From Escherichia coli (GTDB taxonomy: Bacteria; Pseudomonadota; Gammaproteobacteria; Enterobacterales; Enterobacteriaceae), in the NCBI RefSeq assembly GCF_003334815.1, contig NZ_QOWO01000121.1: a stretch of DNA of 691 nucleotides; one strand, 5' to 3'. This document shows, in pieces, positions 1-691 of the stretch; position 1 is the first letter of the stretch, and every line of letters starts with the position of its first letter. The translations under genes and the position numbers were made by a program. The notes under the pieces are model-generated. The model did not search any database. It saw nothing but the letters and a program-made list of their open reading frames with translations, and was not told the origin of the DNA.

Positions 1-38
1 GCCAGCGGCAGGCCGCGATGGTCGCAGTGGTACAGGTG
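1..38 (-). other. Probable N-terminal edge of the 'RHS repeat-associated core domain' ([13 protein letters not shown]…), continuing beyond the left window edge
   Basis: Translation of minus-strand codons 218-230 gives [13 protein letters not shown], a YD-like motif (Y-H-C-D-H-R-G-L). In my recollection of E. coli Rhs proteins this immediately precedes …EYDEWGNLL…GLYYNRHRYYDP…DPIGL, the end of the conserved core. Domain assignment is by recollection of the family consensus, not an HMM run. Confidence 0.55.
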
Positions 39-691
39 GATTTTTCGCGCCGGCGTGTACACCGGGTCCATCTGGTTTTGCATCTGCTCCACCGTCAGGC
101 CGCACGATGCCAGCCAGCGGCGGCTTTCCTCACTCACCCGGTCAGCCAGGATTTCACTTTCCAGCCGGTCGAGCATCTGCACCAGCACCGGCGGGAACAC
201 CACACTGCCACCGTCTTCGCCGCCGGACTGCTGAAGGGTATCCGCCAGGCTGCGGCGCTGCGTTTTCGCCAGCTCACCGGTGGCGGTTTCAACCCTGATG
301 AGTGGCGTGAAGCTCCCCGGCTGATAAATCGTCTGGATGCGGGTTCTGTCGTTCTGTATCGTGGTCAGGCGGTCGCCGTCCCAGCCGTACCAGGTCACTT
401 GCGGTTTCCGTGACAGCGACATCCAGCCCGTCAGGTCCCGTTCACGCCGCCATACCCGTTTTGCCACCCTGCGGCCCAGCGGGTCGTAAAGATAGCGACT
501 TTCGACCAGCGGCTCTGCATATTGTGTCCGCGTGTAGTGCACCAGCCGGTGCTGACTGTCGTAATGGTACCGGTGGGTGCGCTCATCATCCGTGCGGATA
601 ACCCCTTCCGGGATGAGGTCGGTTTTCTCTGTCAGCCTGCCGTGACGGTCATACCGGTAAAGATAGTGCGCGTCACGGGCGATACGGTTAT
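1..691 (-). CDS. rhs: Rhs-family YD-repeat protein, conserved core region (internal fragment, truncated at both window edges; codons in frame from + coordinate 689 down to 3, last 2 nt form a partial Ala codon)
   Basis: Seen in sequence: the minus-strand frame is open over the full window (229 codons, no stop), whereas the other frames are interrupted. The translation contains repeated YD-type motifs ([57 protein letters not shown]) matching the Rhs/YD-repeat consensus (Y-x-Y-D-x-x-G-R-L). Third codon positions are strongly G/C-biased in this frame. Recognition from memory, not a database search: the peptide is near-identical to the E. coli K-12 Rhs core (RhsA/B/C type). The paralog (rhsA/B/C/D or an orthologue in another enterobacterium) cannot be assigned from 691 nt of conserved core, so the symbol is the generic family name. 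Confidence 0.9.
354..395 (-). other. YD-repeat motif-encoding segment ([14 protein letters not shown]) within the Rhs CDS
   Basis: Direct translation of minus-strand codons 99-112; Y-G-W-D-x-x-(D)-R-L-T variant of the YD motif. Confidence 0.65.
453..497 (-). other. YD-repeat motif-encoding segment ([15 protein letters not shown]) within the Rhs CDS
   Basis: Direct translation of minus-strand codons 65-79; good match to the Y-x-Y-D-x-x-G-R consensus. Confidence 0.8.
531..569 (-). other. YD-repeat motif-encoding segment ([13 protein letters not shown]) within the Rhs CDS
   Basis: Direct translation of minus-strand codons 41-53; Y-x-Y-D…R-L pattern, degenerate (no Gly). Confidence 0.65.
627..665 (-). 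other. YD-repeat motif-encoding segment ([13 protein letters not shown]) within the Rhs CDS
   Basis: Direct translation of minus-strand codons 9-21; matches the YD-repeat consensus Y-x-Y-D-x-x-G-R-L-(T/I). Confidence 0.75.

Follow-up and report, generated by a model that had tools for sequence, protein, structure and literature searches.

The 691-nt stretch of Escherichia coli DNA analyzed here, which we refer to as the window, is coding throughout on its minus strand. Minus strand frame 2 (689..1) is free of stops, and the other five frames each contain 1 to 11. Based on the reading frames, the match to NCBIfam NF041261 (RHS_core), and the comparison with RhsC and YbfO, the feature at 1..689 on the minus strand is a 229-aa ORF fragment, open at both ends, from the C-terminal part of an Rhs YD-repeat core. 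The translation aligns with NF041261 end-to-end at profile positions 941-1169 of 1261 (486.8 bits, E=1.5e-145); the whole-protein cut-off of this model, 2000 bits, is out of reach for a 229-aa fragment. There is one recognizable YD repeat, at 525..593 on the minus strand (aa 33-55 of the translation), which matches TIGR01643 (YD_repeat_2x) with 24.1 bits against a cut-off of 15.8. The start of the “RHS protein” associated core domain lies at 3..41 on the same strand, where its initial 13 residues fall within the window (model positions 1-13 of PF03527, i-E=0.014) and the remainder of the domain outside it. Pfam alone is nearly blind to this fragment, as its RHS_repeat matches (PF05593) are weak (E=0.044 and 0.63; best Pfam i-E 0.014), and NCBIfam is decisive.

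The window protein corresponds to residues 927-1155 of the 1397-residue RhsC of strain MG1655, with 227 of 229 residues identical, and has no amino acid differences from MG1655 YbfO. The G+C content is 61.5-65.5%, compared to an E. coli average of ~51%; high G+C is a well-known signature of Rhs cores. The DPLGL motif that marks the boundary between core and toxin is at RhsC residue 1243, 88 aa downstream of the window end, so the original prediction was right to describe the stretch as pure core: the NF041261 alignment is end-to-end, and the toxin boundary falls outside the window. The encoded segment belongs to the C-terminal end of the YD-repeat shell, directly upstream of the RHS-associated core domain. 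At the matching loci, the DPLGL motif, the distinct toxin tips, and the small downstream genes ybfB and ybfC are likewise all outside the window. Altogether, we are highly confident that the window shows, in reverse orientation, a 691-nt piece of the conserved core of a polymorphic-toxin gene in the E. coli RhsA/B/C subfamily of Rhs, and that its exact allele is one of the rhsC locus.

Structural relatives are distant. Only aa 1-143 of the window align, and they do so with the C-terminal part of the solved YD-repeat cores of Pseudomonas aeruginosa Tse5 (8cp6, E=7e-12) and Salmonella bongori Rhs (8qjd/8qjb/8qjc); E-values across these structures range from 7e-12 to 2e-7. The YD repeats are not visible at the DNA level: no direct repeats occur within the window, and its one inverted pair is weak (23 nt, 326 nt apart). 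An Rfam search of the window returned only two chance-level matches, far under the gathering scores. The plus strand holds an antisense ORF at 18-413 (131 aa), which gave no NCBIfam match at E<=1; we rejected it as a gene and take it as a by-product of the GC-rich coding strand.

The window is multi-copy. A megablast search against complete E. coli genomes found it in 3,885 of 5,426 genomes, at 17,411 places, with a median of five and a maximum of nine places per matching genome. Two of these places are plasmid-borne and the remainder are chromosomal. For MG1655, copies were counted by local BLAST on its five rhs loci. Four are full-length and align to the window without indels: ybfO, the orphan fragment downstream of rhsC (99.42%, 4 mismatches); rhsC (99.28%, 5 mismatches); rhsA (98.55%, 10 mismatches); and rhsB (98.41%, 11 mismatches). 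The yibJ remnant contributes a partial match (207 nt, 96%), and rhsD and rhsE are at 77% each. The expectation that this core occurs in several near-identical copies per genome thus holds, both in the median of five places and in the four MG1655 copies at 98.4-99.4%; counted at 95% identity or higher, a K-12-type genome has four full-length matches, not one. The opposite reading, that the window is unique and the multi-copy concern unfounded, draws on the observation that the full-length 691-mer is usually matched exactly only once in a genome. We give it next to no credence: K-12-type genomes carry four full-length copies at 98.4% or above, the median is five places over the 3,885 genomes, one strain (EBJ001) has two exact copies, and a single-copy state was refuted in every genome examined.

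The exact matches place the window at one locus. Among 3,886 matching records from the same megablast search, 34 match at 100%, and all ten of the exact-match loci that we inspected lie between kdpFABC-ybfA and ybfC-ISAs1 remnants-ybgA-phr. In locus, gene order, and flanks, they are the same as the K-12 rhsC element, which consists of rhsC (b0700), the immunity-like gene ybfB, the orphan ybfO (b0703), and ybfC, with kdpFABC-ybfA upstream and ybfC-ISAs1 remnants-ybgA-phr downstream. The K-12 rhsA and rhsB cores, of the RhsA/B/C/F subfamily, are 98.6% and 98.4% identical to the window without indels and at the same position in the core, but are set apart by 10-11 diagnostic substitutions and 2-3 amino acid changes, and they lie elsewhere in the chromosome (3.76 and 3.62 Mb), where other toxin tips and immunity genes accompany them.

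The structural context of the exact match varies. The 34 exact matches are annotated as orphan fragments (15), rhsC (7), single “RHS element core protein” genes (11), and one other feature. The match is the 5'-truncated ybfO orphan in PG20180053 (PG53), H9Ecoli, C600-p2-3, RM10410, and IGC_EcoliInv_1.1; in these five genomes, the main rhsC is 1.87 kb upstream and differs from the window only at positions 39, 60, 76, and 88. In EC11, EC23HZZ201, and FELIX_MS490, the exact match is inside one fused full-length gene. EBJ001 is the sole genome seen with true non-uniqueness, as both its rhsC and its ybfO are 100% identical to the window. H9Ecoli also carries an IS1B between ybfB and the ybfO orphan (extract 10847-11544), which increases the spacing between main gene and orphan by ~0.8 kb. 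Because the 691 nt are wholly inside the homology shared by main gene and orphan, the window itself does not tell whether it comes from an orphan, a main gene, or a fused gene.

The original prediction held that such a fragment cannot be placed at a unique locus. For the full 691 nt, this does not stand, since the exact match is at the rhsC locus in 10 of 10 inspected cases; it does stand in EBJ001, with its two exact copies. The associated concern about short reads is real. In a window-type genome, 84% of the 150-mers of the window (454/542) and 80% of the 250-mers (354/442) are found exactly in another rhs copy, while none of the 650-mers are. The authentic MG1655 ybfO segment shares fewer k-mers with another copy: 75 of 542 150-mers (14%), and no 250-mers or 650-mers. 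The full window can thus usually be placed at the rhsC locus through a few copy-specific bases, and is largely ambiguous for short reads.

The window allele is neither of the two MG1655 copies at this locus, and is instead a hybrid of them. Nine sites in the window discriminate MG1655 rhsC from MG1655 ybfO. In the segment 447..630, the window is rhsC-type: positions 447, 453, 498, and 630 are C, T, A, and T, where MG1655-type ybfO has T, C, G, and C. In the segment 39..222, it is ybfO-type: positions 39, 60, 76, 88, and 222 are G, C, T, T, and G, where MG1655 rhsC has A, T, C, G, and A. The stretch between them, 223..446 (rhsC nt 3022-3245), contains no discriminating site, and one switch point somewhere inside it accounts for all nine sites. 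The four changes relative to MG1655 ybfO are all synonymous, which is why the window protein is identical to YbfO. The ybfO-type bases of segment 39..222 also match rhsA and rhsB, which differ from the window at 10-11 sites overall, and sites 39-88 are all that separates the window from the main rhsC in most genomes with a 100% match. The MG1655-type ybfO allele is the commoner of the two and is itself found at 100% in at least 60 records, including MG1655 re-sequencings, C600, DH5alpha, and J53. We also considered the window as a majority-rule consensus of the four K-12 copies. The sites with a 3:1 split fit, but site 453 has the minority rhsC allele; because a single rhsC/ybfO switch explains all of the sites, we prefer the description as a hybrid.

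The organization of the locus suggests how such a hybrid could arise. Main rhsC and orphan ybfO share 1,045 bp at 97-98% identity, and the window is wholly inside this homology, which extends past it by 82 nt on the gene-upstream side and by 271 nt on the gene-downstream side. The same 1,045-bp core stretch is present twice at the locus, in full-length rhsC and as the 5' end of a promoterless orphan, ybfO, which carries a different toxin tip along with the immunity gene ybfC. By analogy to Salmonella, the core DNA of the orphan may serve not as an independent gene but as a homology arm for main/orphan recombination and tip swapping. One crossover or conversion between main gene and orphan would yield a hybrid that is rhsC-type upstream and ybfO-type downstream, as would paralog cross-talk in an assembler.

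The elements of this scheme have precedents. A recA-dependent unequal crossover between rhsA and rhsB is known, from which the elements took their name, and the five rhs elements of K-12 have been reviewed together with a C-terminal displacement model for the origin of orphans (PMC2935791). Orphan modules, the core/tip architecture, and the DPxGL demarcation have been described (PMC3150448; PMC3967940). In Salmonella Typhimurium LT2, passage selects for a fusion of main gene and orphan through a 522-bp stretch with 95% identity (PMC3967940). That system, with STM0291 as the main gene and STM0292 as the orphan, has the same main-then-orphan module with several hundred bp of near-identical core, and the homology at the E. 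coli locus is both longer and closer (1,045 bp at 97-98% vs 522 bp at 95%). Because K-12 is not known to possess a functional T6SS, it is doubtful that toxins encoded at these loci are delivered in K-12.

Fusions of the LT2 kind, in which the core is joined to the orphan tip, can be read from the assemblies of EC11, FELIX_MS490, and EC23HZZ201. EC11 and FELIX_MS490, the latter with a K-12-sized genome, each have one intact 4,200-nt rhs gene that is followed directly by ybfC, without the rhsC tip and ybfB. The FELIX_MS490 gene matches MG1655 rhsC exactly up to and including nt 3021 and carries ybfO-type bases from nt 3246 onward; the exception is a short rhsC-type patch at nt 3468-3487, which is directly outside the window. 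Its window-equivalent segment is 100% identical to the window. EC23HZZ201 has the same rhsC-core::ybfO-tip fusion, annotated as frameshifted.

The proposal that Rhs cores act as substrates for homologous recombination is therefore borne out by the literature (PMC2935791, PMC3967940) and by these fused rhsC-core::ybfO-tip genes without ybfB, and the displacement of tips into orphan modules agrees with the C-terminal displacement model (PMC2935791). The inversions that were also proposed found no support: none were seen in the loci examined, and a role of rhs in natural chromosomal rearrangement has been explicitly discounted (PMC2935791).

Whether the hybrid allele reflects recombination in cells or cross-talk between paralogs during assembly is less clear-cut. 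We lean slightly toward it being a real product of recombination between main rhsC and the ybfO orphan that circulates in natural E. coli, in which case rhsC would have converted the 5' part of the orphan, or a single crossover would have joined the rhsC core to the ybfO tip. All nine discriminating sites fit a single switch, and in EC11 and FELIX_MS490 the fused genes are intact, in frame, and directly followed by ybfC. The allele is also carried by natural isolates that are unrelated to each other and come from crow, cattle, pig, chicken, and human hosts. In the natural isolate RM10410, the rhsC protein is otherwise MG1655-type, and the ybfO conversion tract is one site longer, extending to nt 2758. 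The mechanism itself is experimentally documented in Salmonella (PMC3967940). Against this, the same allele appears in K-12 derivatives from different laboratories that form no possible clade (IGC_EcoliInv_1.1, PG20180053, C600-p2-3, and MT102), while MG1655, C600 (CP031214), DH5alpha, and J53 keep the MG type, and the same K-12-derivative assemblies have simultaneous allele swaps in rhsA, rhsB, and rhsC. We consider it quite possible, with somewhat less than even confidence, that the hybrid is a chimera made by software, in the K-12-derived assemblies at least and perhaps in the source of the window as well; it would have been generated when graph-based assembly or short-read polishing overwrote short paralog-specific differences with a consensus of the copies. 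Over 16.7 kb, 11 sites distinguish C600-p2-3 from C600, and 10 of them are in rhsC or ybfO; PG20180053 differs from MG1655 at 20 sites in ~43 kb covering the rhsA, rhsB, and rhsC loci, 19 of which are in rhs cores (rhsA 9, rhsB 1, rhsC 5, ybfO 4); each of these core differences is the allele of another paralog. IGC_EcoliInv_1.1 (Portugal), PG20180053, and C600-p2-3 (Shanghai) have the identical nine rhsC/ybfO swaps and a common RhsC protein, WP_128251660.1, even though the three assemblies descend from different K-12 sublines, other assemblies of which are MG1655-type.

The spacing of the swaps also bears on this choice. Overwritten rhsC/ybfO sites stand alone or in small clusters, each separated by over 127 nt from the next position at which recipient and donor differ, while long, dense blocks of differences are intact (rhsC nt 954-2407 and the tip-proximal region). 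Such a pattern would be expected from the removal of short bubbles in de Bruijn graphs or from polishing with multi-mapped reads, and would not be expected from ~8 independent, identical gene conversions. A chimera does not explain everything: three swaps are between alleles of equal copy number, yet have the same outcome in every assembly; at window site 453, the allele taken is the minority one; the change of rhsA and rhsB nt 954 to the rhsC allele in PG20180053 is no simple bubble; and the hybrid ybfO of RM10410 is not accompanied by the other swaps. We found no usable literature on the PG20180053 accessions or on the behavior of the assemblers. The two readings are probably both true in part, that is, the hybrid allele exists in nature and is also generated artefactually in some assemblies. 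It is unlikely, in our view, that gene conversion in rhs cores, both between main gene and orphan and between loci, is fast and directional enough to have recurred identically in separate laboratory K-12 sublines within decades; if this were the case, the window-type allele would be a recurrent product of real conversion, and rhs cores would be a hotspot at which concerted evolution could be measured, not a problem of assembly.

Multi-copy Rhs cores, orphan modules, and main/orphan recombination are all well-described biology, and as such the window represents an ordinary, already known feature, one that illustrates the design of Rhs loci, in which the conserved core doubles as a homology arm when toxin tips are swapped. 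The practical caveat is that, within rhs cores, neither variant calls nor the assignment of paralogs can be relied on, and the same is true even of “complete” assemblies. The initial caution about assembly is well founded, as K-12-derived assemblies disagree at these loci almost exclusively at paralog-specific rhs sites. For SNP counts, inference of gene conversion, or Rhs toxin typing from short reads, rhs cores should be masked or phased with long reads.

Several further observations were made at these and other rhs loci. At the rhsC locus of MT102 (NZ_CP034953.2, locus extract 4669-8788), the orphan that follows ybfB has an rhsA-type tip (“polymorphic toxin type 34”) and the HEAT-repeat gene yibA, followed by an rhsB-type DUF4329 tip fragment and yhhH; together these replace the ybfO tip and ybfC. 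The rhsC core of MT102 also has rhsA-type patches at nt 1629-1678 and 3375-3522. Either different rhs loci have undergone a complex rearrangement with each other here, or a misassembly has joined them. In PG20180053, both rhsA (extract 17415-21548) and rhsB (15305-19540) have A->C at nt 954, which gives them the rhsC base, the rarer allele. The dense rhsC-specific block begins at this site, and the change fits neither simple bubble-popping nor a single conversion. The same assembly has an rhsA that is now identical to rhsB at nt 3108-3231. Compared to PG20180053, IGC_EcoliInv_1.1 has two more rhsC-private bases changed to the rhsA/rhsB allele, at rhsC nt 219 and 153 (extract 13120 and 13186), and over 16.7 kb it differs from C600 at 11 sites, every one of them within rhs sequence. 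The differences between C600-p2-3 and C600 include one site in the ybfO tip, in a yibJ-similar region outside the rhsC homology, and one site in dtpD, the sole non-rhs difference in the 16.7 kb (extract sites 7554 and 1831, respectively).

Window position 1 is rhsC nt 3467, one base short of the variable nt 3468 (C in rhsC and rhsA; G in ybfO and rhsB). The source, only 691 nt long, looks as a contig would that stopped at the branch point of a collapsed repeat; its other end, at nt 2777, adjoins no variable site that we saw, and the location beside a variable site may be a coincidence. In the rhsC of EBJ001 (extract 7274-11467) and the fused rhs gene of EC11 (7268-11467), the core at nt 954-2407 is rhsA/rhsB-type at ~70 sites, in contrast to the rhsC-type block of K-12; large core segments are thus mosaic between loci across strains.
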